Assembly: GCF_964204645.1 (NCBI RefSeq)
Contig: NC_134027.1
Span: 12,928,485-12,992,484 of the forward strand
Direction: 5' to 3'
Length of the DNA: 64,000 nt
DNA from: Tubulanus polymorphus
Lineage: Eukaryota > Animalia > Nemertea
Position numbers and translations under genes: made by a program
The notes under the pieces: generated by a model
What the model was told of the DNA's origin: nothing
The model's database searches: none
What the model saw: the letters and a program-made list of their open reading frames with translations, nothing else
Part shown: positions 8,813-48,163 of the stretch, piece after piece
Layout of the letters: the number at the start of each line of letters is the position of its first letter
Numbering within the stretch: the stretch's first letter is position 1

Positions 8813-8836
8813 TTATTTAGTAAAATAATTACGCAT

Positions 8837-10246: not shown

Positions 10247-11280
10247 ATGGATGAGAAGATACCATGTGAAATTTGTGGTGAACTTCTAGGAAAAAGTAAT
10301 ATGGCTCGACATATGAAAAAACATGATGAAAATTATAAACCCCCTAAACTAAACTGCCCAAAATGTAATAAATCATTCTCAAGAAATTATGTTAAAAAAC
10401 ATTCAGAGAAGTGTAAAATTAATGGCGCAACGGCTAATGTTGATTGTAACGAAAGTAATAGTAATTCTGTTGAAGTTGAACCTGAAGTTATTTGGAAAAG
10501 ACCTTTCTTATTCTATGATAAGGATAATATAAAAGATCATTTCTGTGAGCCTTGTCAAATGAAATATAACCCAGAAGATTGGGAGAATCATCAATTTCGT
10601 AAAGCACATATAGATAAAATTTCTAATAAATTTGAAACTGAATTCAATGAAAGAAAAAATAATTTATTAGAAAAAATAAAATATGAGAAAACGTTACCAG
10701 ATAATAAAGAAACAGTTGAAAAGTTAGAAAAACAATATAATGAATTAACAAGAAAAACATATTATTGTAAATATTGTAAATTGATTATTACAACAAGTAA
10801 TTCAAATCTACATAATAGAACAATAAAACATAAAGAAAACGTAAGAAAATACCAGGAGCTTAATGAAGATCTATTACCAATAAATTATAAACAAAAATGC
10901 CCACAATGTAATTACGCGACCTTAAGACAAGAAGGTACTGTGTTATTTTGTAATGAATGTGGATGGCAAAAGAATTTATGGAGTGAAGAAAAAACTAGAA
11001 ATTTTCTCATAAATTAAATTATCTAGATGAAATTTTTAAAATATTTTCTATAGAAGATCATACACCAGAATATATGCAATGGCTTGAAAAAATGAAAATA
11101 ATAGAAAATAAAAATGGTGAAATAACTAAAAAATATATTATGAAAACAATTATTCCGTCAACATTTAACACAAAACAAAAGAAAATGTATTTATATTTAT
11201 TATTTAACGATTATTATGAAAAACCTAAATTAACAGAAGAAGATATGGAAAATATAAAAAAATATTCAAACAAATATTAA
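10247..11280 (+). CDS. Multi zinc-finger protein; probably one gene with 11074-11280, split by a 5-nt duplication
   Basis: Several CxxC...HxxxH fingers. Removing one AAATT from ATAAATTAAATTATC near 11010 puts the two ORFs in frame. Confidence 0.65.
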
Positions 11281-11561
11281 TGTATCATTTGGAAAATAGA
11301 ATAACAGATTCAATTAATTATGAATTCTTTTTAAATAAGATTGTAAATTATTTAAACATAGATATTATAATTCCATTTGATGAATTCACAAACAAAAAGA
11401 AACAAAGAGAGCGAGATGAAATGTGGAACAAGATAGAACTTTATTTAAATAAGAAAAATGAAATGGAAGAAGAAGCTAAACAAATTATACAAGAACAATT
11501 AAATGAAAATGAAGAAGCCAATAGTGATTTCGATTATGATGATATTGATTTTATGTTTTAA
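11280..11561 (+). CDS. Small acidic hypothetical protein
   Basis: Start overlaps the upstream stop (TAATG); converges on the PolB stop. Confidence 0.5.
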   Translation: MYHLENRITDSINYEFFLNKIVNYLNIDIIIPFDEFTNKKKQRERDEMWNKIELYLNKKNEMEEEAKQIIQEQLNENEEANSDFDYDDIDFMF

Positions 11562-20508: not shown

Positions 20509-20603
20509 TCAAGATAACGATTAATGAAAAACTAATTCCTGAAATAATTTGTCCGTTTTATTTAATAAAGATACTTATATTATTATCTACACACATAATT
20601 CAC

Positions 20604-21708: not shown

Positions 21709-22065
21709 TTTGTTTCTGTTTGTTGTTCTCGGTTATACGTCATTCGATGACGTCATTGCCAACGCACGTGGCAATGTAGTCAAATGTAAACAAATCATCG
21801 GAATTTCTATTAAAAGTCGTATTTAGACCAGTTAGCTAAACCGTAGAAATGTTTTATTGATATCAGTCCAATCTACGATGATTCATCTACCAAATTAATC
21901 ATTAAGAATGCAAAACCTGACTTATGTGTCACAAATCCTTTAACATTATTGTTTTCTGGCTGGTGTTCATTCTCCCCCATTTATTAGGAAAAAAAATTAC
22001 TTGTGGTGATGAGTGGTGTCTCGACCGCACGACCTCTGGTATGAAAGCCCACTTTTCCAATTACT

Positions 22066-29300: not shown

Positions 29301-29581
29301 AATGATTTTATACATGCATTCATTTTAAATGGATATTCGAAGTAAATCAACATGAAATCCTCATGACACACATCCCATTTGTTTGTATGTTTTATTTACT
29401 ATGTATTAAGTCGGATAATAGTCCTAGAATCTTTACCCTTTAAAGCTCAAAGCACCCTTTTTGTCAATAGCTAGTATGACGGTGGTCGGGAATTGGGCCT
29501 GATCCCTCACGAATATAAATTCCGTCCCCGCCCAGCATACTGGTTGTTGACTCTTAAAAGTGCCCCCTCTTGGAATTTATC

Positions 29582-29849
29582 AGTAATAGGGATAATAGGC
29601 TTTCAAGCCAAAGGTCGAACGGTCGAGCTTGTAAAAAATGAAAAAACATAAAAATAATTACAATTTCTACTTGAATTACTCGCGAAACTCATAAAAATGA
29701 AAAATAAATTCTCACACGCTCGAATTTATTTTTCATTTTATGAGTTTCACTCCTAATTCAAGTAGAAATTGTAATTATTTTTATGTTTTTTCATTTTTAC
29801 TCACCCGCCCGTTCAACCTTTAGCTTGAAAGCCTATTATCCCTATTACT
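29582..29849. repeat. Terminal imperfect palindrome (fold-back), left end of element B
   Basis: AGTAATAGGGATAATAGGCTTTCAAGC...loop TCACACGCTC...GCTTGAAAGCCTATTATCCCTATTACT. Confidence 0.92.
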
Positions 29850-31143
29850 CTTAAAATATTCACATAAATGAATAACATTTAAATCATTGAACTTCTAAAA
29901 TCAATTTTAATAAAAAATATAGTATTAAAATGGAAGCAAATAAATACTACTGCCCAACATGTAATATCGATATAGATAAATCCCAAAAAGCAAGACACAA
30001 TAAAACTAGAACACATTTGTTTTTAGTCCAGTTGGTTAAAGCAAAGACATTTATCGAATTATGGAACTCAACACATAGTGAAAAATACGTTGAATCGTTA
30101 TAAACGCCTGATAATACTCAGCTATATAGTTGGTTGTATTAACTCTAGTAAACATATGTTACCAGCTTATATTTCAATTGTAAAGAGTTAATTAATTTCA
30201 TTGATCTAAATGTCTTTATTATTGATTTTTTTTTCAACTATATTTACAAGTCTCAACGCGTTGTGTATACGGCGAACGTTAGCGAATCACAAATCTCATA
30301 ATTTACAAGTCTCAACGCGCTTTTTAGATGTTTCTGGACAACTAAGCTCTAACCAATCAAAAGTCTCTTAATTCGCAAGTCTCAACACACTTGTTCTAGA
30401 TGTTTCTGGATATAGAATAGTATAAATAGGCGCGCACATCCGACGCTTAACAGAGCTATAGAATAAATCTATAAATTCACAGCTGTTACAGCTGTTACTC
30501 GCTGAGATATTATGAATCATTATTACAAACATGCAGAGAATATTCTAGAAAGGCGCGCCGGAACTAGATGACGTGGCATAATCAACGACGTGTTCATTCT
30601 AGAAATCACCCCGGAAATGGACATACGCTGTAATATTGTGCTCAGGATATTCTATCTTTCGAAACGAAATTAGGAGTTTATAGTATACAATTATAAATCT
30701 AAATGTAAGTACTGTTTGTTGTAGTTATTAAGGCTATTAAATACGAAACCTTTAGATATATTTAAGTGTATTTAGTATATATTTTAGATGGTTAGAGTTA
30801 CCGCTAATATCTTTTAGATTAATGAAACGTCATACACATCAAGAAGCGATAAAGAAACTCAAGATACTCTTTCTGACTGAGGAATCAACAGCAATGGATA
30901 TCGAACCAATAGAATCACCAAAAGATCGAAGAAGAAATATAATAATTTCAAAAACATTAAGACTCCAATGATTAAGTTTAACATTTGTTGATGTAGTTAA
31001 ATATTTACCAGCAATTGAAAAAATGTTTGTAATTATAAATTGTATTTATAGAAATCAAATGATGTATTAGAAGAAATGACTGAACAACTTGTATAATGTA
31101 TTGTGTAAATCTGATTTGTGAATTTTTATGTTCAGTCGTTTCT

Positions 31144-31441
31144 ATTATGATTAACGCATGCGCATTAAGCAAAACCGGCCATAAATAGCCGCATGTGACA
31201 CATGTAACGCATGTGACGAGGGACATGAATGCGTTTGAATTTTCTATGTTCAGTTGTTTCTATTTTACAGAATGAATATATAATTATGATTAACGCATAC
31301 GCATTAAGCAAAACCGGCCATAAATGGCCGCATGTGACACATGTAACGCATGTGTTGTTTCTATTTTACAGAATTTATAGAATGAATTTATAATTATGAT
31401 TAACGCATGCGCATTAAGCAAAACCGGCCACAAATGGCCGG
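31144..31441. repeat. Three ~50-72-bp direct repeats
   Basis: ATTATGATTAACGCATGCGCATTAAGCAAAACCGGCCA... at ~31144, ~31283 and ~31393. Confidence 0.85.
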
Positions 31442-31577
31442 CCGCTTGTATTATTTAGATATCAAGGAATCGAAACGACTTATCAAAAGCAACGAGGAAT
31501 GAAAAAGGATGACGTTGGTCGAAGAAATGGAAGAGGATTATAAATTAACCAATTTAGTAAAAAAATACGTATAATAA

Positions 31578-32243
31578 ATGGAACCAGAACAACCACAAAT
31601 TATCAATATTACAAATAACACTGGCGTTATAAACATATATTACAAGAAGTGTTCTAAATGTGAATTAGATAAATCATTAACAGAATTTAGTAAGCGTAAG
31701 ACTAGCAAAGATGGTTTTCAATATTACTGTAAAACTTGCATTAAACTATATACCAAACAATATCGAGAAGATAATATAGAACATTATAAATATTATATGA
31801 CAAAATATATGAGAGAAAGATATCAAACAGATCTTAATTTTAGATTGAAACAATGCTTAAGGTCTAGATTAACACAATTATTCAACAAAGAAACACATTC
31901 AGAAACACTATCTGATCTATTGGGTTGTTCAGATGAATTTCTCAAATCATGGATTATATTTCAATTCGATGATAAAATGAATATAGATAATTATGGGGAT
32001 CATTACCATATTGATCACGTGTTACCAATATCTAAATTTAACATGAATGATGAATACAATAAAAAACTTATTTGGGGTTGGAAAAATTTAAGACCTTTAG
32101 AAAAGAAAGAAAATCAAATCAAATCTAATAAACTAGATTTACAGTTATATTTAGAACAGTTAACAAAAGCAAAGAAATTTATTGATCAATGGAATAATAA
32201 TCCAAATAATGAACAATACGTTGAGTCTTTAATGAGTGGTTAA
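31578..32243 (+). CDS. HNH/EndoVII-like endonuclease of a type common in large DNA viruses
   Basis: CSKC...EF......DG....CKTC N-terminus; LLGCS...NYG..YHIDHVLP...NLRPL...EN..KSNK. Confidence 0.75.
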   Translation: MEPEQPQIINITNNTGVINIYYKKCSKCELDKSLTEFSKRKTSKDGFQYYCKTCIKLYTKQYREDNIEHYKYYMTKYMRERYQTDLNFRLKQCLRSRLTQLFNKETHSETLSDLLGCSDEFLKSWIIFQFDDKMNIDNYGDHYHIDHVLPISKFNMNDEYNKKLIWGWKNLRPLEKKENQIKSNKLDLQLYLEQLTKAKKFIDQWNNNPNNEQYVESLMSG

Positions 32244-32468
32244 AGAATAATAGATTTTAAATAAAATATAATAAAAATTACATACCTTCAACTATCTATT
32301 ATTTCTATTTTAATTTTTAATATTTTCTTTTCAAAAAAGAATACTTTATATAACAAATAAAAAATACTAAAAAAACAATAACTAATACTAGAATTCTTTA
32401 GCTTTAACTATCTAGTATCATTTGAAGAATACTTATAATACTATTCTTATTAAATTTCTCTAATATAA

Positions 32469-33074
32469 ATGTCTAAGAAATCGAATAAGAATAATATTAA
32501 AGTTGAAAAAACTTTGGAAGATTTAGGTCTAACAGATGATAATGATAATGTGGCAACTAAATGTGATAATAAAATTGATAGTAATATTGATTATGAATAC
32601 TATTTATATTGTAAGTATCATCTAGAACTATTGATTGCGAGTGGAAAAACTAAAGAGTTTATTGGTAAAACAATAACTTTTCAAGAATTAGATAATATGA
32701 ATAAAGAAAAAGTAATAAAATATTTTAAGATTTATGAAGAAGCTCGATTAGCTAGAATAAATGATTCTATTTCAGATGGTATTGTCAAATGTTATTCTAA
32801 GTTATGTAACCAGTTAATACCAATTGATGATGAAAATAAATTATATAGTGATTTGAAAAATGACTACTTAGTTATGACTGAATTACAAAAATGGGTCAGT
32901 TATGCTTCATTCCAATTAGGATCGGTTATGACATTAATTTCTACTGGTGTCATAACATTTTCGAACATCAAACCTATGGAATATAAATCAGGTAAGAACG
33001 AAACAGATGTACTACAACCAAACAGTGAAACAGAAAATGAATCAGAACAAAAATTAACTAAAATAAATGAGTGA
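32469..33074 (+). CDS. Conserved ~200-aa protein
   Basis: Homolog of 58744-59334; TAAATG start. Confidence 0.8.
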   Translation: MSKKSNKNNIKVEKTLEDLGLTDDNDNVATKCDNKIDSNIDYEYYLYCKYHLELLIASGKTKEFIGKTITFQELDNMNKEKVIKYFKIYEEARLARINDSISDGIVKCYSKLCNQLIPIDDENKLYSDLKNDYLVMTELQKWVSYASFQLGSVMTLISTGVITFSNIKPMEYKSGKNETDVLQPNSETENESEQKLTKINE

Positions 33075-33462
33075 TGGAGTTAAGAAAAAGGCTAGATCAG
33101 AGAAACAAATTAAATGGGCAAGAGAATTAGGTAAAAGATCTTCAGAATTAAAAAAAGCTAAGAAAAAGAAATTAACTGATATAAATGAATCACAGAAATT
33201 ATCTGATGGTGCCGTACAGCACCCACACGGTGGTATTGATTCAAATAATAATCCATCTAATTCTTCTAATGCTGGAAGTAATTATAAATTATATATTACA
33301 ATTGGATTAGTAACAGTTATTATATTATCCGGTGTAATATATAAATCAAAATTCAAATCTGATGATAAATATGATTCCAATGATGATAAACCTATTATAC
33401 CAGAAAATAAGTCAAATCATAAATCAAATGAAAATAAATCTAAAATATTATTAATGGATTAA
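33067..33462 (+). CDS. Single-TM protein with basic N-terminus
   Basis: RSEKQIKWARELG...LYITIGLVTVIILSGVIY; homolog of 58443-58796. Confidence 0.75.
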   Translation: MSDGVKKKARSEKQIKWARELGKRSSELKKAKKKKLTDINESQKLSDGAVQHPHGGIDSNNNPSNSSNAGSNYKLYITIGLVTVIILSGVIYKSKFKSDDKYDSNDDKPIIPENKSNHKSNENKSKILLMD

Positions 33463-33468
33463 AATAAG

Positions 33469-34554
33469 ATGAAAAAAGAACAATATTTAAGAGATTTATA
33501 TTATAACCCAGAAAGTGAAGTTTCATATTCAAATGTTTCGGAATTATGGGATAAAATTAAATCTGATAAAGAAAAAATAAAATATAGTGAATTAAAATCA
33601 TGGTTACAAAATCAACCCACATATCAAATTCATAAAAAGATGGATAAAAAATATTTAACAAGAAAAGTAATGGTTTCATATATCGACCAACAATGGCAAG
33701 CTGATTTAATTGATATGAAAAACTGAGAAGAATATAACAAAGGATATTTTTGGATACTAAATGTTATAGATATATTCAGTAGATACGCATGGAGTATCCC
33801 GATTAAAAATAAAACTGGTATAGAAGTTACAAATTCTTTCAAATTAATATTTAAAGAAGCTATTCCAGATAAGATACAATTTGATGAAGGTAAAGAATTT
33901 TATAACAAACATTTTAAAAAACTATTAACTGATAACGATGTAGAATATTTTTCAACACATTCAGATAAAAAAGCATCTGTTATAGAAAGATTTAATAAAA
34001 CATTGAAAACTAGAATGTGGAAATATTTCACCGCTAATGAAACATATAAATATATCGATGTGTTAGATGATTTAGTTAAAGGTTATAATAATTCTAAACA
34101 TAGTTCGATAAATATGAAACCTATACAAGCTAGAAAAGAAGAAAATTCAGAAATAGTTTGGAATAATTTATATGGAGCATTTGTTACACATGATTTTGGA
34201 GAACCTAAATTTAAAATAGGACAACATGTTAGAATTTCTAAATATCGAAAAACATTTTATAAAGGTTATACCCCTAATTTTACTGAAGAAATATTTAAAA
34301 TTAAAAAGATAATATTAACTAAACCATTTGTTTATAAATTGTTTGATTTAAAAGATGAAGAAATATTAGGTTATTTTTATGAACAAGAATTATCATTAGT
34401 ACCAAATCCAGATGAAATAGAATACAAAATAGAAAAAGTATTGAAAACAAAAACTCTTAAAGGAAAAAAGTATTCTTTGGTGAAATATAAAGGATATGAT
34501 GATAAATTTAATGAATGGATTTTATCTAGTAAAATTAAAAGAATAAATGAATAA
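33469..34554 (+). pseudogene. rve integrase with chromodomain; one in-frame stop at 33724-33726
   Basis: WQADLID, QFDEGKEF and IERFNKTL in one frame broken by a TGA. Confidence 0.88.
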
Positions 34555-35161
34555 AGATTTGTTTATATTTGAACCACATAATATGTTAGTTACTGGAGTT
34601 ACAAATTGTGGTAAAACACACTTCATATTATATTTATTAGAAACTATTTATAAAAATCATTTTGATAATATAATATTATTCTGCCCAACTTATGAAATGA
34701 ATGAAACGTATAATAGAGATATAGTTTTTAAAGATAAAAAGTTTATTATATTAAATTCTAAAACAGTGAAAGATAATTTAGATAATTGTATAAAAATTGC
34801 ATTAGATATTTATAAAGGATCTAATACATTATTTATTATCGATGATTGCGCAAATTTACATGATTCTAAAATTAGAGAAAGTGAGTTATGTTATTTAGCT
34901 TTCTCTGGTAGACATTTTGGGATAACAACATGGGTTTTAAATCAAAAATATAATTCAATTGTTAAAGACTTTAGAGAGAATATAAGATTTCTAGTTTTAT
35001 TCTACAACAAAGATAGAAAATCTATGCAACAATCATTGGAAGAAAATCAAATTATACCTACTGAATTACATGATGAATATATGAATAAATTAAAGAATAA
35101 TAAAGGTTCAAAATTATTACTGAGATTACAATTTCCATATGAATATAAATTTATAAAATAA
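34547..35161 (+). CDS. A32-like packaging ATPase
   Basis: GVTNCGKT, FIIDD, SGRH motifs. Confidence 0.9.
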   Translation: MNKDLFIFEPHNMLVTGVTNCGKTHFILYLLETIYKNHFDNIILFCPTYEMNETYNRDIVFKDKKFIILNSKTVKDNLDNCIKIALDIYKGSNTLFIIDDCANLHDSKIRESELCYLAFSGRHFGITTWVLNQKYNSIVKDFRENIRFLVLFYNKDRKSMQQSLEENQIIPTELHDEYMNKLKNNKGSKLLLRLQFPYEYKFIK

Positions 35162-35190
35162 AATCCTAATTTGGAATATTATAGAAACTA

Positions 35191-35521
35191 ATTTATATAT
35201 CTATGTACTAGACGTACGAGTAAGAAAGTAAGATTCTTACCTTTTTACTTTCTTGGCAAGAATCTTAGATTCTTACGTACGTCTAGTCCATAAAAATATG
35301 AATTATTAAATGAAATATATAATAATGAATAAATCATATATTAAAACTATGTTTATAATTTATATTTATAATTTATGTTTATAATTCATATTTATAATTT
35401 ATATTTATAATTTATGTTTATAATTTATGTTTATAATCTATGTTTATAATTTATATTTCTTGGCAAGGATTCTTGGATTCTTACTTTCTTACTCGTACGT
35501 CTAGTGCATAGATATATAAAT
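35191..35521. repeat. 43-bp inverted repeat enclosing a 12-bp AT tandem array, between convergent genes
   Basis: Arms 35191-35233 and 35479-35521 (one mismatch); TTTATAATTTAT(A/G) repeats at ~35352-35457. Confidence 0.85.
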
Positions 35522-35554
35522 AGTTTTATAGATATATAAATAGTTTTATAATAA

Positions 35555-36688
35555 TTATTCTAATTTTGTTTCTAATACATTTATAAAATCATCTTCGTTT
35601 ATATCAAATTCTCCATAAGTCTTTGGTATATTTATTGAGTTTAGTCGATCCATCATTAATCTATAATCAGTAGGCATATTAATTTTTTCTTTTATTTTTT
35701 CAAAGTTTTCATCAAAATCATAATAATAAAAATCAATATCATATCCAAAATTAATTATCAAATAAGTTGAATCTTTTCTTCTCACATATAATAATTTATA
35801 CATTTGTTCAAGATTATCGTTTGCATAATCTAAAAATTTATGTAATAACAAATTATAGAATATATCATATTGGTTAATATTATAATCAAAATATTTTATA
35901 TATTCTAAAGGGTTATTTAACAATGGTAACATACCCACTTTTTTATAAACATTAATTAGATGTAATTTTGATTTATAATGAGTAATTTTATCAACAGGTT
36001 CAATTTCTTTATTACAATAATCACATATTAATTCTTTTTCATTTTCTATGTGCCACTTAGATTTTTTATGTTTAGAAAAATTACTTTTAGAAATATCTAA
36101 ATTACAAATGTTACAATGTTTTTTAGAATCATCAATTATTTCATTATCTGTTATATCATTATCATTAGTTTCAATTGGGTTAACATTATTTATTACATTA
36201 TCTGTTATATTATCTATGGTATCATCAGTTTCAATTAGGTTAACATTATCTTTTATATTACTAACTGATATATTATTATCATTATTATTCTTTTCTTTTT
36301 CTATATGTTTCTTTGATTTCTTATGTGATGCCCAATTTTTATATGATATATATTTCTTACATACATCACAATATTTTTCATTTATCTTTTTGGTTTTGAT
36401 ATCAGGTTCAATCTTATCATAATTCGATGTAGAAGGTATAACATTATCTTCTATTTTAGATTCAATATTATCTTCTATTTTATATTCAATATCATTCTTA
36501 TCTTCTATTTTAGGTTCAATATTATCTTCTATTTTATATTCAATATTCTTATCTATTTTACTTATTCTATATTTGAATTGATTAAAGTAATCTCCAAAAT
36601 ACCTACTGTATTCATCATAAGGTAATATATAATATATATCTGATATCATTTCACTTGGAGATTGTATTTCATATATTCCACCTTCCAT
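35555..36688 (-). CDS. Zinc-finger protein (three CxxC...H.KSK.H fingers) with KIEDN repeats
   Basis: CDVCKK...HKKSKKH, CNIC...HKKSKWH and CDYC...HYKSKLH. Confidence 0.75.
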   Translation of the reverse strand: MEGGIYEIQSPSEMISDIYYILPYDEYSRYFGDYFNQFKYRISKIDKNIEYKIEDNIEPKIEDKNDIEYKIEDNIESKIEDNVIPSTSNYDKIEPDIKTKKINEKYCDVCKKYISYKNWASHKKSKKHIEKEKNNNDNNISVSNIKDNVNLIETDDTIDNITDNVINNVNPIETNDNDITDNEIIDDSKKHCNICNLDISKSNFSKHKKSKWHIENEKELICDYCNKEIEPVDKITHYKSKLHLINVYKKVGMLPLLNNPLEYIKYFDYNINQYDIFYNLLLHKFLDYANDNLEQMYKLLYVRRKDSTYLIINFGYDIDFYYYDFDENFEKIKEKINMPTDYRLMMDRLNSINIPKTYGEFDINEDDFINVLETKLE

Positions 36689-36720
36689 TTATTATATATA
36701 TTTTTATTAAAGTTAAAATT

Positions 36721-37968
36721 TTAATACATATCACTATCTAATTGTGAATTTACAATATTTAATTGCGCGTCAGATATAATATAAATGTGCATTTTGAAAT
36801 TTTTGATTCCCTTTTTCTTTGTCATGAATAATTGTATTACATCTTTAGTGTTCTGTAGTTTTTTTCCAGAACCATGTAATGAATTATCTTCAGTTGTTCT
36901 AAAATCTAACCATAATGCATATTTATTACCGGTATAATAATCAATTTGATTAATGTTACAATTTTCAAATGATTTTACTTTTTCATTCATAAAATGTTTT
37001 TTAATTTCTACCCATTGATCAATCATTCTCATTCCTTGACAAAATATTTTATTCGCTATTCCTTCGATAGTTATTTCTACTTTTGCTATTTCAGGATTAT
37101 AATAATTGTCAACATTTATTGCACCATTAGTATACGTTCCAATGGTAAAAAATATTAATATACCTTTAATAGATCTTCTAGGAAAGTTAATATTCTCATT
37201 AATTATTTCATCATTTGCATTAATAGTTACAGTTTTAAATTTATCAATATAATCATATAATAATGAAAATCCTTGATTGTATTGGGTTTGAATTATACTT
37301 GAAATATTTTCATCAGTTACTGTATCATATTCTAAACATATATTCGATAATTTATAACTCATATCTTTATTAACGCTAGATAATACAATTTCATTTACAG
37401 GAGCAAATGTTATCTCAAATATAACGTCTTCTTGAATTGCGCATTTATATAAAGGTGCATTATTATTTATCAATTCAAAGTCTAATGGAATTTTATATTT
37501 GCTTCCATATATACTTTTTATCAATTTATCTACATCATTAGTTAATATTGCGCTATTAGCTTCTGATCTTAATTTATTTTGGTTTTCTGATTGAATTCCT
37601 TGAAATATCATATTATTTCTATTTTCTTTAGTTAACCATAAATCTTTATAATGTGAAAATAAATTATAATCATCTAATGAGAAAACTGTTTCTGGACCAA
37701 TCTTTATTGTTAACTTTTTAATCAAATATCTTCCAACATTATCAACAACATAATTATTATTATTACCGATTACTTTTATATAAGCTGATAAATAAATACT
37801 GTTTGGAACATAAAAAGTATTTTGTGTTAATCGAGGGATTCTAACGTATAAAGTTTCATCGGGATTAATATTTGAAGGGTTATGAGTAATTATATGATGT
37901 GATCTTTCTGCTTTAATAGCATTAGATATTCTATGATTCTTCGAAGGACTTATATAACTCCCACTCAT
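36721..37968 (-). CDS. Putative double jelly-roll major capsid protein
   Basis: 415 aa, beta-strand-rich pattern (LSNICLEYD, N.PRRSIKGILIFF, YALWLDFR), conserved in all three elements, next to ATPase and integrase. The fold is inferred, not computed. Confidence 0.75.
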   Translation of the reverse strand: MSGSYISPSKNHRISNAIKAERSHHIITHNPSNINPDETLYVRIPRLTQNTFYVPNSIYLSAYIKVIGNNNNYVVDNVGRYLIKKLTIKIGPETVFSLDDYNLFSHYKDLWLTKENRNNMIFQGIQSENQNKLRSEANSAILTNDVDKLIKSIYGSKYKIPLDFELINNNAPLYKCAIQEDVIFEITFAPVNEIVLSSVNKDMSYKLSNICLEYDTVTDENISSIIQTQYNQGFSLLYDYIDKFKTVTINANDEIINENINFPRRSIKGILIFFTIGTYTNGAINVDNYYNPEIAKVEITIEGIANKIFCQGMRMIDQWVEIKKHFMNEKVKSFENCNINQIDYYTGNKYALWLDFRTTEDNSLHGSGKKLQNTKDVIQLFMTKKKGIKNFKMHIYIISDAQLNIVNSQLDSDMY

Positions 37969-38012
37969 TTATTTAACAAAAAAATTAATTATTTATTTTT
38001 TGATATCATGGT

Positions 38013-39725
38013 TCACTTGATATTTTTTGATATCATATTTACTAAACCAAAAATAATAGCACTTACAACTGTAATTAAAAATAAAATAATATGTTCAGCA
38101 GCAAAGTTAATAATGTTTCCTGCAGATTTCAATATAAAACCAACAATTGAAGCAATAACTCCTGGCAATGCTGCAGCAGATTTTTTAGATAGTTCCCATA
38201 AATATTTTGCTAATTTCTTTAAACCATCTTTAACTTTATCTTGTATAGAATTATTACCTGGAGGTTTATCTGGTTTATTGGGGGTGGGAGTAGGAGTAGA
38301 TTTTAAAGCATTTGATATTGCTAAACCAATTGTTGTAAATAACATAGTTACAGCTGTTAGAATTGAAAGAATTGTTATACCTTCTAATTTAAATAATAAT
38401 CTTATTCTATCTTTCAATGATATTTCAGAATCTGGTTTAATCAACAAATCTTTAAAAATAACTTTTAATTTTTTAATATGATTAAGATCATATGATTTTA
38501 ATAATATATCTCTTTCTTCTTTTTGTAATTTTATGTTATATTCTAAATCATCTATTTCTTTTACTAAAGCTAACTTTCTGCTTTCAAAATCAGCTTCATA
38601 AACTACTTGATGATCTCTATTTAATTCTAATTGTTTTAATTCTTCATCTACATTAACTAATTCTTTTTCTAATATGGTTATTTTAGAAAATCTCATCTTA
38701 ATATTAGCAATTTCATCAGCTGATACTTGTATACCTTTAATTTCTCTACGTATTTGTTTAGGAAATGCTTCTAATTCTTCATCAGTTAAATTAAGAAATC
38801 CTTTTTCTAGTAAATATTGCAGTCGATTTATTCCAGTTTCAGAACCAGATGTATCTGATATACTATTCATCAGTTCTTCTGAATCTCTTAATCTATCAAT
38901 TTGTTTTTCTAATTGTAATTTACTTGAATAATTATCAATTTGTTGAGTGTCTCTTCTCGATGTTTCGGGTGTTGAAGATCTCAATCTATCTAATCGATTT
39001 CTATTCTCTTCCATTTCTGGATTAAAATCAGTAGGATTTGGATTTGGATTTTTAAATGGTGAATATTTGTTTATATCAATATTCGGAATTGGTTCTTCTT
39101 CATTTACTCTATCGAGTGCATTCCATATAATTCTGAGAAATTCTGTGCCACCTTTTGAACGTTCAATTGTAGATGTTGCTCGCATTTCAGGTTCATAAAT
39201 ATTTTCTTGACCCATTTTAGATAATTGAATTGTTACAATATTCCTATTTAAATCAAGATTATAATACCATGCATCATTTTTAAATTCTAAATTATTTGTG
39301 AAATATGGGTCATCTTTAAAAATTTGATCTACAACACCTTCTGTATCAATTTCATGTATTACAACTGTTGGTAATAATTCGTTAACAATTGTATCTGTTA
39401 CTCTAGATTTCATTTTAAATAATTCCAAACGTTCATCAGGATATTTTTCTTGTTGTTTTTCTAATACATTCATTAATTCTTTTCTTTCTGTTCTAGTTGT
39501 AATACTATCACTTTTAGGAGCTTCTAAATATTTATTTAATTTTTCACGTACTTCGGCATTAATTCCATCATCATCATAATCATCATCTTCACCTAAATTA
39601 GTATTATATTCTGGCTCATTACCGTCATTAAAACTTGTTTCACTAAAATCGGGTTGTTGTTCATCACTTATACCAGGTTCATCTAAAGGATCCAATGGAA
39701 TATCTTCTCCACCTTCTACATCCAT
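38013..39725 (-). CDS. 570-aa acidic/coiled-coil protein with three C-terminal hydrophobic segments
   Basis: Heptad-rich region followed by hydrophobic helices; homologs in A and C. Confidence 0.8.
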   Translation of the reverse strand: MDVEGGEDIPLDPLDEPGISDEQQPDFSETSFNDGNEPEYNTNLGEDDDYDDDGINAEVREKLNKYLEAPKSDSITTRTERKELMNVLEKQQEKYPDERLELFKMKSRVTDTIVNELLPTVVIHEIDTEGVVDQIFKDDPYFTNNLEFKNDAWYYNLDLNRNIVTIQLSKMGQENIYEPEMRATSTIERSKGGTEFLRIIWNALDRVNEEEPIPNIDINKYSPFKNPNPNPTDFNPEMEENRNRLDRLRSSTPETSRRDTQQIDNYSSKLQLEKQIDRLRDSEELMNSISDTSGSETGINRLQYLLEKGFLNLTDEELEAFPKQIRREIKGIQVSADEIANIKMRFSKITILEKELVNVDEELKQLELNRDHQVVYEADFESRKLALVKEIDDLEYNIKLQKEERDILLKSYDLNHIKKLKVIFKDLLIKPDSEISLKDRIRLLFKLEGITILSILTAVTMLFTTIGLAISNALKSTPTPTPNKPDKPPGNNSIQDKVKDGLKKLAKYLWELSKKSAAALPGVIASIVGFILKSAGNIINFAAEHIILFLITVVSAIIFGLVNMISKNIK

Positions 39726-39741
39726 TTACATAATAAAAAAA

Positions 39742-41129
39742 TTAAAATTTAAAATATAATATTCCTCCGATTACAATTCCTATACAAGTTATAGCTAATT
39801 TAGTATTTTCATGGGATTTATTATCATCATTTAATTTAATTATATCATGTTGAATTTTATCAGTTTTTATATTTTCTGATGTATTGTAATCTTTTATTTT
39901 GGAATCATTATTTAATTTGATATTTTTAGTTTTAGTTTCTGTTGATTGAATGTGTTTTTTATTTTTTCACCTTCCATTAATTTTGGAGCAGTAATAATCT
40001 TTTTATTTATATCATTCAATCCAAATGAATTATTTATTGTTGCAGTTTTAATTAGATTATTATAACCAATTATATTTCCCATCTTTAATACTAAATCATT
40101 AGAAATAATTAATAGATTAGGGCCTATACAATAATTAAGTCTTACATGAGATTTATCTAAATAATTTTGATATCTTATAATGTTTTCTGGAATCGATCTA
40201 TTTTTATCATTATGTATGGAATCTTCAAATAAAACTTTAAATTGTTTTTGTGTATCGAATGATGTATTCAAATTTCCAATTATCGGTGATCTTGTTTCAA
40301 CTTGTGATCCTAGAATACAAATCAAATAAGTTCTAATAGATTGATTTATTCTTTCTATACCTGATTTAGTAAAACCTTCACTATTCTCTAAAATAAAATA
40401 AACCCAACCATTATTGTTTTCTTGTTTTAAATTATCATAAAATTTTGGTAATTTATTGAAATTTAATGTTTCTAAATCTTTTGTTTCTATTTTACCATAA
40501 CCTAATTTATTATTATAGATATTATAAAAACTATTAGATGGTATGGGAAGTGCACAATATTCTGCAATCTTTCTAGGGCATGGAAGTGATCTTATTGTTC
40601 CAATTTTTGTTCTAAAATCAGAATTATTTATATCTATATTAAATTCATTACAAATCTTATAAAACTTTGATAAATTAATATTATTATCTAATTCTTTGAA
40701 ATACCTAGATCCTGGTAAAGCGCACTCTAATTCATTTAATATTATTCTTATTTGAAAGTATGTATGAAATCTAAATAAACTTTGAATTAATTTATATTTA
40801 GAATTATTCAAATGATCATTCCAACTAATTCCACATCCTGTTGTTGCACAATAAACAGCAAAATTTAATTGATTCTGCCAATACTTCATATTAGATTTTA
40901 ATAACCATTGTTTTTCATCTTTCAATTTTTTAAAATTAATTAAATATACATGAAATATATTTTCCATCTTTGCATTAAAATTATTAGTTTCAGTAACATA
41001 AATTTCTAAATTAGTTAATGAATCTAAAACTTCATTTCTATATGTAATATCTTTATTAAAATCTATTGCTGGAATATTATATTTAATTGATTTATTATAT
41101 TGGAAAGCTTTTGGAAAACTATCTACCAT
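39742..41129 (-). CDS. Conserved protein (WQNQLNFAVYCATTGCG); C-terminal TM tail separated by a frameshift near 39960
   Basis: ORF 39912-41129; downstream sequence matches the element A tail encoding ...LTCIGIVIGGILYFKF. Confidence 0.75.
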
Positions 41130-41146
41130 TTATATAATTAAAAAAA

Positions 41147-41587
41147 TTAATAATTTATTAATTCTTTTAATAATTTATCTTGTTCTTCAACTGTTATATG
41201 ACCATTTAAACTTATTATATAATCTAGTGTGTTCTTTAATTTATTAATTTCTTTTATATTAGATTTTATTTTTTCTTTATTACTTTTTATATTTAATTTT
41301 GAACTTAAGTTTGAACCAGTTAAAACACTTGAACTTAATCCTAATACACCAATTGATATAGCTAAAGGTGTTAATGGGCTGAATATTGCTAGAAATGTTA
41401 TTACAGAACTAATTGTAACCGAACCACTAATAATAAGATAATATATAATTTTGCTTTTTAAATATTTTTTCTTTTTTATCTTTAAGTCACTTTCAAATTC
41501 TAATATTTGTTTTTCTAAATATATTTTTAATTTAGTTTTATTTATATCATGAGGAATAATATCAATACTATCAACTTTATCTTCCAT
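41147..41587 (-). CDS. Two-TM membrane protein
   Basis: Homolog of 7963-8370. Confidence 0.75.
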   Translation of the reverse strand: MEDKVDSIDIIPHDINKTKLKIYLEKQILEFESDLKIKKKKYLKSKIIYYLIISGSVTISSVITFLAIFSPLTPLAISIGVLGLSSSVLTGSNLSSKLNIKSNKEKIKSNIKEINKLKNTLDYIISLNGHITVEEQDKLLKELINY

Positions 41588-41607
41588 TTATTTAGCAAAA
41601 AAAATTA

Positions 41608-42030
41608 CTAATTAGTAAACTTATAAGCAACAAATATAACAATAACTGTTCCACCTAAAATCCAAATTATTTCATATTTCTGTTGTTCTTTACTTGGGGT
41701 ATAATAATCTGATAATTTAGGTTTGTATAGATGTAATTTTTCTTTATTTGTTACTGCGTTATATAAACTCATTGCATCATCAACTGATTGAAAATCTCTA
41801 TGTGAAATCTTCTGATCATATAATTCTTTATTGATGTAATCCATATAGTTTTGTCTCTTTTCTCTATATTCTTCTGCAGCTTTATTGTATTTCTCTAACG
41901 CTAAGTTATGTCTTCTTTGTTCTCCTAATGAACTATTTTTATCAATATGTTTAAATAAATAACCACCACCAGTAAATGCTAAAGCGTTAACAATTGCCGA
42001 TCCTATAATAGTTATAATTGCAGAAGCCAT
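41608..42030 (-). CDS. Conserved 140-aa hydrophobic-ended protein
   Basis: Homolog of 8390-8812. Confidence 0.8.
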   Translation of the reverse strand: MASAIITIIGSAIVNALAFTGGGYLFKHIDKNSSLGEQRRHNLALEKYNKAAEEYREKRQNYMDYINKELYDQKISHRDFQSVDDAMSLYNAVTNKEKLHLYKPKLSDYYTPSKEQQKYEIIWILGGTVIVIFVAYKFTN

Positions 42031-42054
42031 TTATTTAGCAAAAAAATTATGCAT

Positions 42055-42276
42055 TTATATGGGAGGAATATATTTTTGTTTTTCTAAATAATCAATAGTT
42101 AAATTAGATAAAGTAACTGCTAATGTTAATTTTAAAATATCATTTATATCAAATCTATCAACATTAACACTTCCCATTTTAAATACTTTTTTTAATACCA
42201 TTGAATAACCAACAGTTCCAACTGATAGTAATGCGCCATTATATAATCCAGTTATTATCCACTTATTATCACTCAT
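42055..42276 (-). CDS. Conserved 73-aa hydrophobic protein
   Basis: Homolog of 8837-9058. Confidence 0.75.
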   Translation of the reverse strand: MSDNKWIITGLYNGALLSVGTVGYSMVLKKVFKMGSVNVDRFDINDILKLTLAVTLSNLTIDYLEKQKYIPPI

Positions 42277-42624
42277 TTATTTATCAAAAAAATTACTATC
42301 ATCAAAATATTTAGTTAACTTATTTATGATTAATTCAACATTTATTTCATTACTAGTTTTATGATTATCATATATTTTGGATAATATGTTTTTGATATCA
42401 TCAATAATTCCATCTTCATTTAATTCATAAAATCTTAAAGACTCGGTAATCTTTTCTACATTAAAAGTTTCTTTATCAATTGTTGTTTCATACTCAAATG
42501 TTGTTTCATTAGAAAATGCAATATTTTTGATATGTGTAATTACATCATTAATGTTAAATTTCATTTCTTTCTCACGTTTAAAATCAAACCCAAAACATAT
42601 ACTCGGTCCAACAGTTATATTCAT
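42277..42624 (-). CDS. Conserved hypothetical protein
   Basis: Homolog of 9062-9415. Confidence 0.75.
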   Translation of the reverse strand: MNITVGPSICFGFDFKREKEMKFNINDVITHIKNIAFSNETTFEYETTIDKETFNVEKITESLRFYELNEDGIIDDIKNILSKIYDNHKTSNEINVELIINKLTKYFDDSNFFDK

Positions 42625-42640
42625 TTATATAGGTGAAAAA

Positions 42641-43396
42641 TTACTCTTTACATCTTATAACTAATTCATAAATTACAGGGAAATTATTCAAATCAATTAA
42701 GTATCCATTATGATTTCTTATTTCTAATTTAAAATTATTAAATTGAGGAATACAAGGTTTAAAATCACATTCAGCTAAATTATAATTTATTTGCGTTCCA
42801 AATTGTTTAACATTCTTCAATGGTAAAATGTTTAATATACTAGAATTACAAGTTATATCTTTAGTTGCTTCGAATGTTTTTGTAGGATCGATTAAATTGC
42901 AATAAATATAAAAATGTGTAAAAGTCATTAAATTTGTATAAGTTTCGATACTTGAATAATCTCTATCCGGGAGAATTCCAAACAGTTTAGCTAAAGGTTT
43001 TCTTACTAGAAATCTATGTTGTTCATTAGTTAACTTTATTCTTATTTTATTCGAACTATCATTTTTGATAAATTTAATTTCAAATCTAGCAGCTGCACCC
43101 ATTTTTAAACGAGCTCTTCTATTAATTTCTTGCGCTAATGTTTCTAAATTATATAATCCTGGTTTTAGATAAAGATGAAACCATTTATTCAAATTTCTAA
43201 CATGAATTTTAAAAGCTAAATGATCAAGACTTTTATTTGATATATTATGAAAAGAATTACATAAACTTATATTTACTAATTTTAAATCTACACAATTCTT
43301 GAATTCTCTATCTAATTGTACTAGTAAATTATGAGATTTATAATTTGTAAGTTTTCTAGAATCAACAAATATTCTGTATTCTTTTAATTCCACCAT
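42641..43396 (-). CDS. Putative minor capsid (penton-like) protein
   Basis: 251 aa with IFVDS N-terminus, LKPGLYN, and FYIYCNLID...LEIRNHNGYLIDLN C-terminus. Confidence 0.72.
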   Translation of the reverse strand: MVELKEYRIFVDSRKLTNYKSHNLLVQLDREFKNCVDLKLVNISLCNSFHNISNKSLDHLAFKIHVRNLNKWFHLYLKPGLYNLETLAQEINRRARLKMGAAARFEIKFIKNDSSNKIRIKLTNEQHRFLVRKPLAKLFGILPDRDYSSIETYTNLMTFTHFYIYCNLIDPTKTFEATKDITCNSSILNILPLKNVKQFGTQINYNLAECDFKPCIPQFNNFKLEIRNHNGYLIDLNNFPVIYELVIRCKE

Positions 43397-43411
43397 TTAT
43401 TTTACATATTT

Positions 43412-43753
43412 TCATTCAAAATCAATATCGTGGTGCCCTTTTTCATTCTTACCTTTGTATACGAAATAGAAATCTCCAGAACATAATTCTTCTAGATCTT
43501 CACTTGATAATCTATGAAATCTATCTGGTAAATAAGTTCTGAATTTATATTTATTTCCTTTTAATCCTTCATATTCTAAATGAATTACTAATTTATCTCC
43601 ATATTTATTAGTAATTGTTTCAATGTTAGTAATTAAATATTTCTTGTGAATTGTTAACTCAGTTAGTTTTTTAAATTTATAATCTACAGATTTGACGCTT
43701 GAAGTATCTTTAATTCTATCTAAGAATTCACTGTGTACTTGTTTACTCTCCAT
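43412..43753 (-). CDS. Small protein, possible ssDNA-binding protein
   Basis: Homolog of 386-712; lies directly downstream of PolB. Confidence 0.55.
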   Translation of the reverse strand: MESKQVHSEFLDRIKDTSSVKSVDYKFKKLTELTIHKKYLITNIETITNKYGDKLVIHLEYEGLKGNKYKFRTYLPDRFHRLSSEDLEELCSGDFYFVYKGKNEKGHHDIDFE

Positions 43754-43781
43754 TTATTATACAAATTTTTATTGAAATTGA

Positions 43782-46700
43782 TTAACACGCTAGAATCCTT
43801 TTCATAATCTCATTTTCTTTTGTTTCTTCTCTTTTGAATTTTATATATTCATCTAAATTGCAACCATAGGCGACTGTGTGGATTCCATCATCTAAAATAT
43901 ATCTTTTATCATCAAATGGATTCAAACTTATCTTCTCTATCTCTTCAATATACATTTCATGATCTTCAGATCTTAAACATTTCATCTTATGTTTTCTAAC
44001 TTCTTCATTAAATATACAATTGATGTAATCTTTAAAATGAATATTCTTTTCAACAACGCTTTTGGTAATTCCTTTTAACTTTTTAGCTTCATGAGTTTTG
44101 GTTTTATATGAATACATTTTAGATCTAATACCAATGAACTCTATCATTTCTTCACCACCTAATTCATCCTTAAACTTCCCAGGAACTTTTTTATTATCAT
44201 TGGTAAACAATTCATGATTTTTTGGATAGTTACTGAAATCAAAATGGTGTTTTAATGTTTTTAAATCATCAGTTATGTTATCAGTTTTTATCTTTAATAT
44301 GTAAGAATCTGTATCAAAGTATAGTATTTCTATGTGTTTTTCTCCAAAATGGGGTTGTAATATGTTATAGTAAAATTTATACATTAATAACTTTGATAAT
44401 TCTAAAACAGTCGAACCATTAAATATAGGTTTATTGAATTTAATAGACGTTCTCCTCATTTTAACTGCAGCTAAATTTTCATCAAATATTCTGTTACCTA
44501 TAAACTTAGGATATGATTGTAAATGCCTTATCCTTTTACCATTACTAACTAACTCAATATCATTTCTATTTCTAATATTTTCACAAGTTTTTCCATAGAA
44601 TGCATTATTCATTAACTTAAAAATCTTTTTCAAAATCGGTTTTAGATTTAGTTCTCTGTGTAGTATTAAAATCTATATATTTTTCTAACCATTTAGATTG
44701 ACTGAATGAAATATATCTATGTACTTTTTTTAATATCATTCCTTGTCTCAAATAAAACTTTAACATTCTATAATGTACTACATAATTATATTTATCTTCT
44801 TGAGTTACCATTAACTTTTCAGTATGAATATGATTATCGGGTTTAATTCTTTTTTGATAATTTGATAATTTTTCATGTTTAACAGTTTTATGTTCGGGAC
44901 AATATGCTAGATTTCTAGATTTGAATTTAATATTTTCAGGGTATTCTAAATCTACAACGAAGAAGTAACCAATATCTGAATCATCTGCAATATCTAGGAT
45001 TCTTTTCTTCCAATCAAATTTATCAATTTGTAAAACTTCAGTTATTTCAAACATCCCATAAGGTTGTGGTTCCATCATTGCCCAACCATAAAGATTATTT
45101 GCATCTATGTATAATAATTTATATCCAGGATTATCATTTACATTGAAATATCTATCACCCAATACACCTGAAACACCTCCTCTTATAGATTTTTCAAATA
45201 ATAGTAATTGATCTATATCTGTTAACAAATCCATTTTTATATCTGTACATTTTAAACCACAATCCCATGTTAATCCTGGGCTAGAATAACAATGACATGG
45301 ATCAATATTAAAATATTTTAGGTTTACATCTCTAAACCTTTCGAATATATCGGTTAATAATAATACATCTGATTTTAAATATAAATCTACTAATTGTCCA
45401 TGATTTTTAATTTCGAAATGATTCCAAATATTCAATGTTCTATTATAGACTTCATCTTTAACATATTCATTTTTTAATTCATCATAGAATTGTTCTTTCA
45501 ATAATTCAGTTATTTTAAAATCATTATGATTTTTATAGAAAGAATATGGAATTGCTCCTTTATATCTCATTAATTTAAAATCATCATTATTTGGATAGTG
45601 TTGCTTTAATATTTTTAATTCATCATCAACTAATGATTTTGATAAGTTATCTAATGAACTATTTAAAAATCTATATGAATCTATAAATCTTAGACAACCA
45701 AATTGGAATGATATATAATTCTCAGATGTTTTAGCTAACATTCTAAATTTATAAGTTGGTATTTTATCTTTTGATCTATTTGAATTTAATATTTCTATTT
45801 CATTATTGATTTCTTCTATTTTATAACATAGCTGTTTGATAAATAAATGTGCATCATATCCTGATAGATTATGAAATATAACTGGTACAAAATTAATTTT
45901 CTTAGCTTGTAAGTTACAATTCTCATGTGCAGCGCCTCTAAACTTTCCATTCAAATGATCATGGTCTCTTACTTTTTTATCTTTATAATTAAATATCTTT
46001 TCACAATAATAACATTTATCAGCAAACTCAAATTCTTCTTTATCTTCTTCTGTCATTATAATTTCTTTATTTTCATTTAACTTTTCATTAAATTTTATTT
46101 CATATTCAATTAATAAGTCACAAAAATGATTGATAACATTTTCATTTCTGTAATTATAATATTCACTTTCAATTAGTTCTGGATAATTAGATTTAATATA
46201 TAACCCGAAAGCAGCAGCTGATTGATGAATCTTTTTAATTGTATTTGTTTTTGGTGGTTCTTCTGAATAATCATTTTCATTAGAATTTAATTTCTTTCTT
46301 TTATAATATATATCTTTTCTATCTTTATCTGTTAATTCTTTATTTAATGATTCAAAATCTCCATATATTACAAATGGTACTTTATTTTTGTAATCATATT
46401 TTTTGAATTCTAATATTTTATCTTTTTCATTTGGTAAAACTAATTTACAATAATCATGATTATCACATAGTTGTTTATGATTTAATAATGTACTTTCATT
46501 ACTAAATTTATGTAAACATTTTCTACATAGATATATTTTATTATGGTGATCACTTTCTGTTCTAAAAAATAAATCTATTTGTTTAATCCACATATAATGA
46601 TTCTCATAATATAGTATATCTATAACATCATTTGAATCATAATCTTTTGATAGGTATAAAGGTTCTAATGTATAATGTTTAATATTATTTCCTTTTGTAT

Positions 46701-47814
46701 TTGGTAATTTGATTAAATCAAATACATTTATCTTTATATTATTATCTCTTTCTATTTTTGGAATATTTTTAATTCTAACAGGATACTTATCTATCTTATA
46801 ATTATTTTCAAATTGTTTATAATGAGTTAATCTAAAACTATGTTGTTTATAATCTTCAACTGGGTGTAAACAACTTATTATAGCCCATAGAAAACATTTT
46901 TTATCAAAATTTTGTATATTTATTACTGCTTTTGTTGTAAATGGTAATTTAATATAACTTGTTCCATTTATACTATCATCTTTATAATATGATAAATTAT
47001 TTTCATCAATTGGTTTTGATTTAGTTAACTTATTATATTTTGTGTTATAAACATGTAAAGTTATAAATATTATCTCATCAAATATTAAACCAGATCCTTC
47101 AAAATATTTCTCTTCTATTTTAGTTTTTATTTCATTATAACATTTATTTAATTTATCATCTATATGTTGTTTAGATATAATATGTTGTGAATGAGAATTT
47201 ATATTATATATTGGTTTATCTTCAGATTTTATAAACTTTACTTTAACTGATATACTAATTTTAGGATATTCAACATCTGTAATTATTTTTATTATTTCTT
47301 TCATATTTTCTAAATGTTTTTTATTTTCTTCTAATGTTTTTCCTTTATGAAATTTAAACTCGATAGCTGCTGGACCAATATCACTTTTAAATGCTTCGGC
47401 TATTTCTATATCTTTTTTATTATCTAATGAATTAATATAATTTCTTACATCTTCCATGTATGGTCTTTTATTGTTTAATTTATTTTTTATTCTTTTAATT
47501 GTCTTCTGTTTCTTATCGTTATCATTATCAAAATAATCTTCACCTAAAATATCATTATTCTTATTTCTAATATGACTTATAGATTTTAAATGTTCTTTAT
47601 AATATCTTTTATCACTGAATGATTGATTACATGTATCACATTTATATGTTTCTTTTTCATTCTTTAATTCTTCTAATTTAGTTTCTAATATATCATCTTT
47701 ATATTCTAGTTTCAATTTATTCTCTAAATATGTTCTAGTTTTATTGTGTCTTGCTTTTTGGGATTTATCTATATCGATATTACATGTTGGGCAGTAGTAT
47801 TTATTTGCTTCCAT
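43782..47814 (-). CDS. polB: Polinton-type family B DNA polymerase (intein-free), single frameshift near 44630
   Basis: N-terminal zinc fingers, DFES exonuclease motif, DHDHLNGKFRGAAHENCNL, YIDANNLYG, KLMNNAFYGK, YFDTDS and RSKMY. Confidence 0.93.
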
Positions 47815-47894
47815 TTTAATACTATATTTTTTATTAAAATTGATTTTAGAAGTTCAATGATTTAAATGTTATTCATTTATGTGAATATTTTAAG

Positions 47895-48163
47895 AGTAAT
47901 AGGGATAATAGGCTTTCAAGCTAAAGGTTGTACGGGCGGGTGAGTAAAAATGAAAAAACATAAAAATAATTACAATTTCTACTTGAATTAGGAGTGAAAC
48001 TCATAAAATGAAAAATAAATTCGAGCGTGTGAGAATTTATTTTTCATTTTTATGAGTTTCGCGAGTAATTCAAGTAGAAATTGTAATTATTTTTATGTTT
48101 TTTCATTTTTTTACAAGCTCGACCGTTCGACCTTTGGCTTGAAAGCCTATTATCCCTATTACT
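47895..48163. repeat. Terminal imperfect palindrome, right end of element B
   Basis: Near-exact reverse complement of 29582-29849. Confidence 0.92.

Follow-up and report, generated by a model that had tools for sequence, protein, structure and literature searches.

Poxvirus-like gene starts in an animal Polinton clade and the case for a predicted helper virus

Nearly every gene of an integrated Polinton/Maverick in the ribbon worm Tubulanus polymorphus begins at TAAATG, in a setting that resembles the late and intermediate promoters of vaccinia virus and that recurs in related capsid-encoding loci. The element, B, occupies positions 29582-48163 of a 64-kb stretch of contig NC_134027.1 (assembly GCF_964204645.1; hereafter the window, 64,000 nucleotides in full) and is one of three AT-rich elements there. 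A second element, A, carries a broken gene resembling the large-virus late transcription factor VLTF3. Together, these features suggest that the elements are virophage-like satellites of an unseen poxvirus-type virus whose RNA polymerase would read their genes, a reading to which we assign a probability of roughly 0.6.

about 4-22065: element A
29582..48163: element B
from about 57844: element C

Start signals in element B

A preliminary description of this DNA had proposed poxvirus-late-type promoters at almost every gene of B, and its counts hold: TAAATG opens 14 of the 16 genes, the exceptions being the integrase (TAAGATG) and the DNA polymerase PolB (TAAAATG), and the start strings that it quoted for the major capsid protein (MCP) and for the genes at 41587 and 42276 are exact to the letter. 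The starts are sorted below into T-run and A-run classes, which were defined after B had been seen; genes lacking an assigned function are named by product length in amino acids (aa).

37966..37987, minus strand: MCP gene, T-run (late-type)
39723..39744, minus strand: 570-aa gene, T-run
41127..41148, minus strand: 405-aa gene, T-run
41585..41607, minus strand: 146-aa gene, T-run
42028..42049, minus strand: 140-aa gene, T-run, with an extra TAAATG 24 nt upstream
42274..42295, minus strand: 73-aa gene, T-run, within the upstream gene's end, whose stop supplies the TAA
42622..42643, minus strand: 115-aa gene, T-run
32450..32471, plus strand: 201-aa gene, TAAATG with T at -9 and -10 and a weaker T-run
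31555..31580, plus strand: endonuclease VII/HNH-like gene, A-run (intermediate-type)
33045..33069, plus strand: 131-aa gene, A-run, within the upstream gene
34525..34549, plus strand: A32-like ATPase gene, A-run, within the end of the integrase gene
36686..36710, minus strand: 377-aa zinc-finger gene, A-run
43394..43418, minus strand: 251-aa gene, A-run
43751..43775, minus strand: 113-aa gene, A-run

The extra TAAATG before the 140-aa gene (42031-42054; 8813-8836 in A) opens a seven-codon frame that ends at the TAA of that gene's true start.

Enrichment over other ATGs is strong. TAA directly precedes the ATG at 14/16 starts versus 48/741 other ATGs (Fisher p 1.5e-14), and the longer pattern TAATTTTT-spacer-TAAATG lies upstream of 7/16 starts versus 0/741. 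Since choosing the first ATG after a stop favors a preceding stop, spurious first ATGs provide a fairer null; among 526 of these in B, TAA precedes 48, TAG 19, and TGA 16 (binomial p 2.8e-13 for the observed starts), and under the same null in host DNA, TAA precedes 29 of 899. Across 20,000 shuffles of the 45-nt upstream regions, TAAATG numbered 1.3 of 16 on average and never exceeded 7. The claim that A and C carry the same pattern also stands: TT-N6-WATAAATG occurs 23 times in the window, every time in A, B, or C, versus 3.9 expected, and 0/100 shuffles reached 23. The short intergenic gaps of 0-45 bp that had been described are found at 12/14 same-strand junctions (at most 44 bp, two of them being 8-bp overlaps), but the remaining two gaps measure 186 and 225 bp.

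The signal in related loci

Capsid relatives of B fall into a close group (~46-77% identity), found chiefly on short contigs from metagenomes, and a distant group (35-40% identity), of which many are on long contigs. Loci were drawn from a metagenome scan (18 from 217 pattern matches; L001-L018) and a genome scan (three from 71; L019-L021), and 82 starts were validated by homology to B proteins, of which 68 were left after dereplication. TAAATG is present at 55/63 starts in the window and in loci with capsid identity of at least 50% (L001-L014/L016) and at 0/5 starts in L015, L017, and L018 (40-45% capsid identity). These 55 starts span 15 gene families in loci that differ in gene order and range in G+C content (GC) from 0.20 to 0.44, with the motif retained in loci at GC 0.40 and 0.44; because the loci are mutually related, p-values overstate their independence. 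Head-to-head TAAATG signals on both strands, with ATGs only 19-30 nt apart, occur in L002, L009/L010, L011/L012, and L013, and TAAAATG-type head-to-head pairs 37-59 nt apart occur in L017 and L020. The outgroup loci L019 and L020 mostly have AAAATG starts, often TAAAATG, and L021 has neither.

Several further observations concern these relatives. L015 and L018 (44-45% capsid identity), for which few starts are available, lack TAAATG and in several cases have AATATA right before the ATG; this recalls the asfar-like TATA-type late motif and might indicate another helper. A deoxynucleoside kinase gene (PF01712) is present in L001 (10340-10981, E 2e-31), where a T-run TAAATG precedes it, and in L007 (2895-3377, E 8e-31). 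Capsid homologues P0045 and P0126-P0133 and loci L019-L021 are deposited as bacterial or archaeal (Bartonella and others), labels that probably reflect assembly contamination. A viral contig collection contained no relative of the capsid, the ATPase, or the VLTF3-like piece and no exact copy of the 22-nt motif.

Anatomy of the signal and comparison with poxviruses

Counting upstream from the T of TAAAT, a T stands at -9 in 53/55 clade TAAATG starts versus 35% of 126 non-start TAAATG (in B, 14/14 starts versus 20/48 non-starts), and an A stands at -1 in 89% of starts versus 40% of non-starts. A fixed base about one helical turn upstream would be expected of a promoter rather than of a translation context. 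T at -10 is found in 94% of 35 virion-block starts versus 40% of 20 others, the virion block being the MCP gene and seven genes grouped with it, among which a structural role is established for the MCP only. The 20 starts outside this block have 60-75% A at -15 to -11 and resemble intermediate promoters.

According to PMC11980589, vaccinia late promoters have TAAAT plus G and a conserved T at the tenth nucleotide upstream, whereas intermediate promoters have TAAA, no such T, and an A/T-rich run followed by T. In two poxvirus stretches tallied by hand (2 of 38 loci), T at -10 accompanies 10/13 TAAATG starts versus 5/29 non-starts, and one head-to-head gene pair lies 37 nt apart. The A-run class looks like intermediate promoters in its sequence, as a post hoc class whose members switch between families A and B. 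Overall, the resemblance to poxviruses is closer than had been proposed, extending to the T register at -10/-9, an A-rich class, loci at 40-44% GC, and head-to-head pairs, whereas promoter function stays a prediction.

TAAATG could instead be a by-product of compaction, arising from stop-start coupling, an upstream poly(A) signal, a trans-splice acceptor, or AT bias. B is indeed about 77% AT with short gaps, and 28/55 clade starts have AATAAA right before the ATG. However, the TAA is the stop of the upstream gene in only 1/14 cases (42276), there are no TAG or TGA versions, and the signal is present where there is no upstream gene and in head-to-head pairs; coupling is thereby ruled out. A poly(A)-signal origin is contradicted by the head-to-head pairs and by TATAAA at 21/55 starts and ATTAAA at 2/55, only 6/55 starts have an AG within 12 nt of the ATG, which speaks against a trans-splice acceptor, and neither the retention of the signal at GC 0.40-0.44 nor the fixed T at -9 is predicted by compaction. 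This explanation is largely refuted, and we regard it as highly improbable.

A VLTF3-like gene in element A

Two features of A bear on its transcription:

10247..11561, plus strand: VLTF3-like gene in three pieces (zinc fingers, C4 ribbon, VLTF3-like C-terminal block), T-run TAAATG start
21970..22065, minus strand: right terminal inverted repeat (TIR), with a T-run TAAATG opening A's PolB

The last piece of the VLTF3-like gene (11229-11558) matches Pox_VLTF3 (PF04947; profile positions 100-164 of 168) with E 1.7e-4 and 21.8 bits, under the curated cut-off of 25. Against seven poxvirus A2 proteins, three of which were Pfam-checked, it gives an HHalign probability of 92% (E 6e-7, 68 columns), and the C4 ribbon that closes the first piece gives a weak alignment to the A2 ribbon (probability 15%), with four cysteines in register. 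Nothing in phages or among PDB sequences matched the VLTF3-like piece. A pattern scan placed 38/40 matches in poxvirus-sized genomes; this was rejected as evidence for a poxvirus donor, since its wildcards were guided by recall and direct comparison shows no preference. The gene is broken in A but is covered by many contigs, and is thus multi-copy, in X1-X3 (three DNA runs on two samples from a single study). A itself reaches 22065, since the 5' end of its PolB contains a DNA transposon (16541-21941), which has short TIRs and encodes a THAP open reading frame.

The VLTF3-like gene adds a putative independent link to large-virus late transcription. PMC11253617 describes VLTF2/3 homologues as undetected outside Nucleocytoviricota and mriyaviruses as encoding VLTF2/3 without an RNA polymerase and as probably nuclear, facts that feed both the satellite reading and the rival of nuclear autonomy considered below. 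Alternatively, the helper could be a cytoplasmic large DNA virus that is not a poxvirus but likewise initiates at TAAAT. The first half of the VLTF3-like piece resembles the poxvirus protein and the second half the giant-virus one, and literature searches surfaced no poxvirus of ribbon worms or their relatives; on the other hand, the late motifs described for other families differ (TATATA in asfar-like viruses, TCTA in CroV), and the register of the T at -10 fits poxviruses. Such a helper seems distinctly improbable.

Structure, integration, and gene content of element B

B is a Polinton/Maverick by its TIRs, target-site duplication, integrase, ATPase, polymerase, and capsid:

29576..29581, plus strand: 6-bp target-site duplication TTTATC flanking B, second copy at 48164-48169
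29582..30018, plus strand: left TIR, 437 bp, in which the PolB promoter and first codons are duplicated
47726..48163, minus strand: right TIR, carrying the PolB start (A-run class, TAAAATG at 47812-47818)
29582-29850 and 47895-48163: 269-nt near-perfect palindrome opening each TIR, a fold-back hairpin
31578-32243, plus strand: endonuclease VII/HNH-like gene, no same-strand gene upstream
33469..34554, plus strand: RVE integrase with chromodomain, TAAGATG start, reading frame broken by a single in-frame stop
34547-35161, plus strand: A32-like ATPase (PF04665, E 7.5e-12)
36721..37968, minus strand: double-jelly-roll MCP, 415 aa, model predicted local distance difference test score (pLDDT) 85
43782..47814, minus strand: PolB, protein-primed type with an endonuclease VII insert, split into two reading frames

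The GC of B is about 0.21-0.26 across most of its length versus 0.34-0.43 in its flanks, and the 34-43% GC DNA around the three elements contains a BEL-type retrotransposon and THAP and HECT genes. A HECT gene of the flanks has a single hit, to Tubulanus polymorphus (92% identity across 43% of the query), in keeping with a nemertean or related host. The joint of an empty site (29575 to 48164) and B copies lacking 63 nt at the tip are both found in X1-X3. Summed contig depth runs from thousands to 200,000 across B in X1 versus 157-171 for flanking contigs, which indicates many copies but gives no copy number. The TIR palindrome folds at -102.9 kcal/mol (z -25 versus 200 shuffles) and repeats the terminal sequence inverted internally, which could allow a free 3' end to prime its own synthesis by folding back. 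The first ~46 nt are common to A, B, and C, yet the TIRs of A and C are ~95 bp long and lack the palindrome.

The top Foldseek match of the MCP model is the PBCV-1 capsid (E 3e-16). The integrase match (PF00665) has E 3e-7 and 31.1 bits in B, slightly below the cut-off of 32.6, and E 5e-11 in A. PolB of B has no direct Pfam match, and PF03175 is present in many of its best 120 homologues (40-58% identity); some polymerase homologues (P0159, P0167) have intein domains in precomputed Pfam annotation (PF14890). Integrase and polymerase are both broken in the present copy. Pfam and PHROGs scans gave no protease family match for any B protein, and no significant match to an RNA polymerase subunit was found among 29 and then 40 further proteins scanned, with structure models in both cases covering 2/16 B proteins; a single Rpb1 match (E 0.086) was dismissed as noise.

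The 251-aa gene, which had no match in the family scans, is a candidate minor capsid gene by size alone. The 405-aa protein (39912-41129) has 1289 representatives at E of at most 0.001 and a confident fold (pLDDT 86.5) but matches nothing, its best BFVD hit having E 0.36 and Pfam returning nothing on 90 homologues; comparison with VIA gave no fold match (best Z 3.6, root-mean-square deviation 12.2, 146 aligned). The stretch at 35182-35530, which separates the convergent ATPase and 377-aa genes, is a candidate terminator or origin, with a 13-nt tandem array alongside an inverted repeat of 55 nt.

Probable satellites of a proposed poxvirus-type helper

The satellite reading draws on the fixed-register signal and its T-run and A-run versions, the elements' own capsid, ATPase, PolB, and integrase alongside no detectable RNA polymerase gene, and the VLTF3-like gene. 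Helper dependence of this kind has precedents in mavirus with CroV, Sputnik with mimivirus, and the endogenous mavirus-like elements (EMALEs), and a further parallel in the Polinton-like viruses found within entomopoxvirus occlusion bodies.

By the Kozak rule, a T at -3 relative to the ATG, as TAAATG imposes, is a poor eukaryotic start context. Under helper control, the integrated chromosomal copy would be largely silent, and once a helper infects the cell, a free linear copy would be replicated by the element's own PolB at, or close to, the cytoplasmic factory of the helper. Transcription by the helper's post-replicative polymerase would initiate in the AAA of TAAAT, where slippage would produce a poly(A) leader that replaces the poor T at -3 with an A-rich context; such initiation and slippage are established for vaccinia and yeast linear plasmids. 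A-run genes (replication, nucleases, ATPase) may switch on at the intermediate stage and the T-run virion block late, and the VLTF3-like protein might boost or divert the helper's late complex, possibly serving family B in trans.

Several points weigh against helper dependence on a poxvirus-type virus. The case is built from DNA sequence, with a hypothetical helper and predicted transcription. The Pfam score of the last piece of the VLTF3-like gene lies below its cut-off, for which reason we name it VLTF3-like only; the middle piece of the gene finds no match, no homologue of the gene is detectable in B, and the pairwise scores of the last piece against three poxvirus A2 proteins (30.0, 32.0, and 27.7 bits) equal that against one giant-virus VLTF3 (29.3 bits), favoring neither as donor. 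T at -9, the strongest position in the Polinton clade, shows no clear enrichment in the poxvirus hand tally (10/13 starts versus 14/29 non-starts). The start classes are not strict by function: PolB and the 113-aa gene have T-run starts in A and A-run starts in B, and A-rich starts occur at several head-to-head MCP or 570-aa genes. L017, L019, and L020 have short gaps and TAAAATG-type starts as well, so an older Polinton trait may account for some of the pattern, and TAAAN initiators also occur in yeast linear plasmids (PMC6211774), so the motif does not identify a helper. Lastly, coral polintoviruses are reported as expressed in ordinary transcriptomes (coral preprint).

An alternative is an autonomous nuclear element, in which Pol II reads a compact, near-leaderless promoter, perhaps guided by a VLTF3-like factor that the element itself encodes, and any likeness to poxviruses reflects shared ancestry or convergence. 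The expression of coral polintovirus genes, the compact TAAAATG starts already present in outgroup loci, the multi-copy VLTF3-like gene of the host, and the mriyaviruses are consistent with this, as is a mild depletion of AATAAA in higher-GC loci (24 versus 33, z -1.9). Yet AATAAA is not avoided in the coding strands of B (71 versus 67.9 expected, with 17 in the long PolB frame), and B has no VLTF3-like gene. Moreover, divergent ATGs 19-30 nt apart are too close for two ordinary Pol II promoters with leaders, and the T at -3 is a poor start context unless a poly(A) leader replaces it. Mild AATAAA depletion extends to sister loci and the outgroup, with none in B, a mixed picture that favors neither reading. 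We consider nuclear autonomy unlikely. The poxvirus early terminator TTTTTNT is also depleted in coding strands (11 versus 25; 3 versus 11), but this was set aside, since all long A/T runs are depleted (A7, 20 versus 58).

Returning to a poxvirus-type helper, a broader version can be proposed tentatively, at somewhat less than even odds: a whole clade of animal Polintons may consist of endogenous virophages whose helper is a deep-branching, poxvirus-like virus that still awaits discovery in marine invertebrates, mimicking both intermediate and late promoters as a timed cascade, some with a captured late transcription factor, and their germ-line copies may constitute an inducible antiviral defence. 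The question bears on whether animal Mavericks are autonomous or helper-dependent; according to bioRxiv 10.64898/2026.06.19.733378, neither virion nor life cycle has been demonstrated for them. If correct, helper dependence would carry virophage biology beyond protists into animals, mean that a VLTF3-like gene exists outside Nucleocytoviricota, and predict poxvirus-like viruses in a marine invertebrate phylum for which none surfaced in literature searches. Polintons might also be grouped by probable helper on the basis of their start motif.

Comparison with known systems

Relative to vaccinia promoters, the Polinton signals are alike in the TAAAT overlapping the ATG, the T at -10 among T's in the late type, and close head-to-head pairs, with a tentative likeness to the A-run followed by T of the intermediate type; compared by sequence only, they differ in a near-invariant T at -9 and a longer T-run. 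Like other Mavericks/Polintons (Polintoviricetes; adintoviruses, PMC8502044), B has TIRs, a 6-bp duplication, protein-primed PolB, an RVE integrase, an A32 ATPase, a double-jelly-roll MCP, a length of about 18 kb, and many copies. Unlike them, it has no detected cysteine protease and has poxvirus-type starts, and some members of its clade carry VLTF3-like or deoxynucleoside kinase cargo. The word "promoter" is absent from the main texts of PMC8502044, the coral preprint, and two 2026 overviews. Literature searches, which covered few subscription papers, surfaced no report of poxvirus-type promoters in animal Polintons, a question on which the supplements of PMC8547959 could bear.

The yeast plasmids pGKL1/2 are linear and protein-primed. 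They share the TAAAN initiator and poly(A) leaders made by slippage but, unlike the Polintons, they encode an RNA polymerase and a capping enzyme themselves, have an upstream conserved sequence, and lack a capsid (PMC6211774). The entomopoxvirus-associated Polinton-like viruses (PMC11296320) are likewise small, proposed parasites of poxviruses that exchange genes with them; they differ in a length of about 12 kb, insect hosts, protease and phospholipase genes, and presence in occlusion bodies, the likeness being one of description rather than of compared capsids. The main text of PMC11296320 contains no promoter or motif analysis, and its supplements could bear on motifs.

Mavirus and the EMALEs of Cafeteria, together with Sputnik, are similar in logic: they encode capsids (mavirus also integrating), lack an RNA polymerase, and place the late promoter of their helper upstream of most or all genes. 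They differ in a protist host, a Mimiviridae helper, a TCTA motif, and the virophage capsid class, whereas the clade of B has an animal host, the TAAATG motif, and apparently two promoter classes. Helper-promoter mimicry by integrating capsid-encoding elements is known from protists, and what is new here is that poxvirus-type starts and a VLTF3-like gene occur in a clade of animal Polintons.

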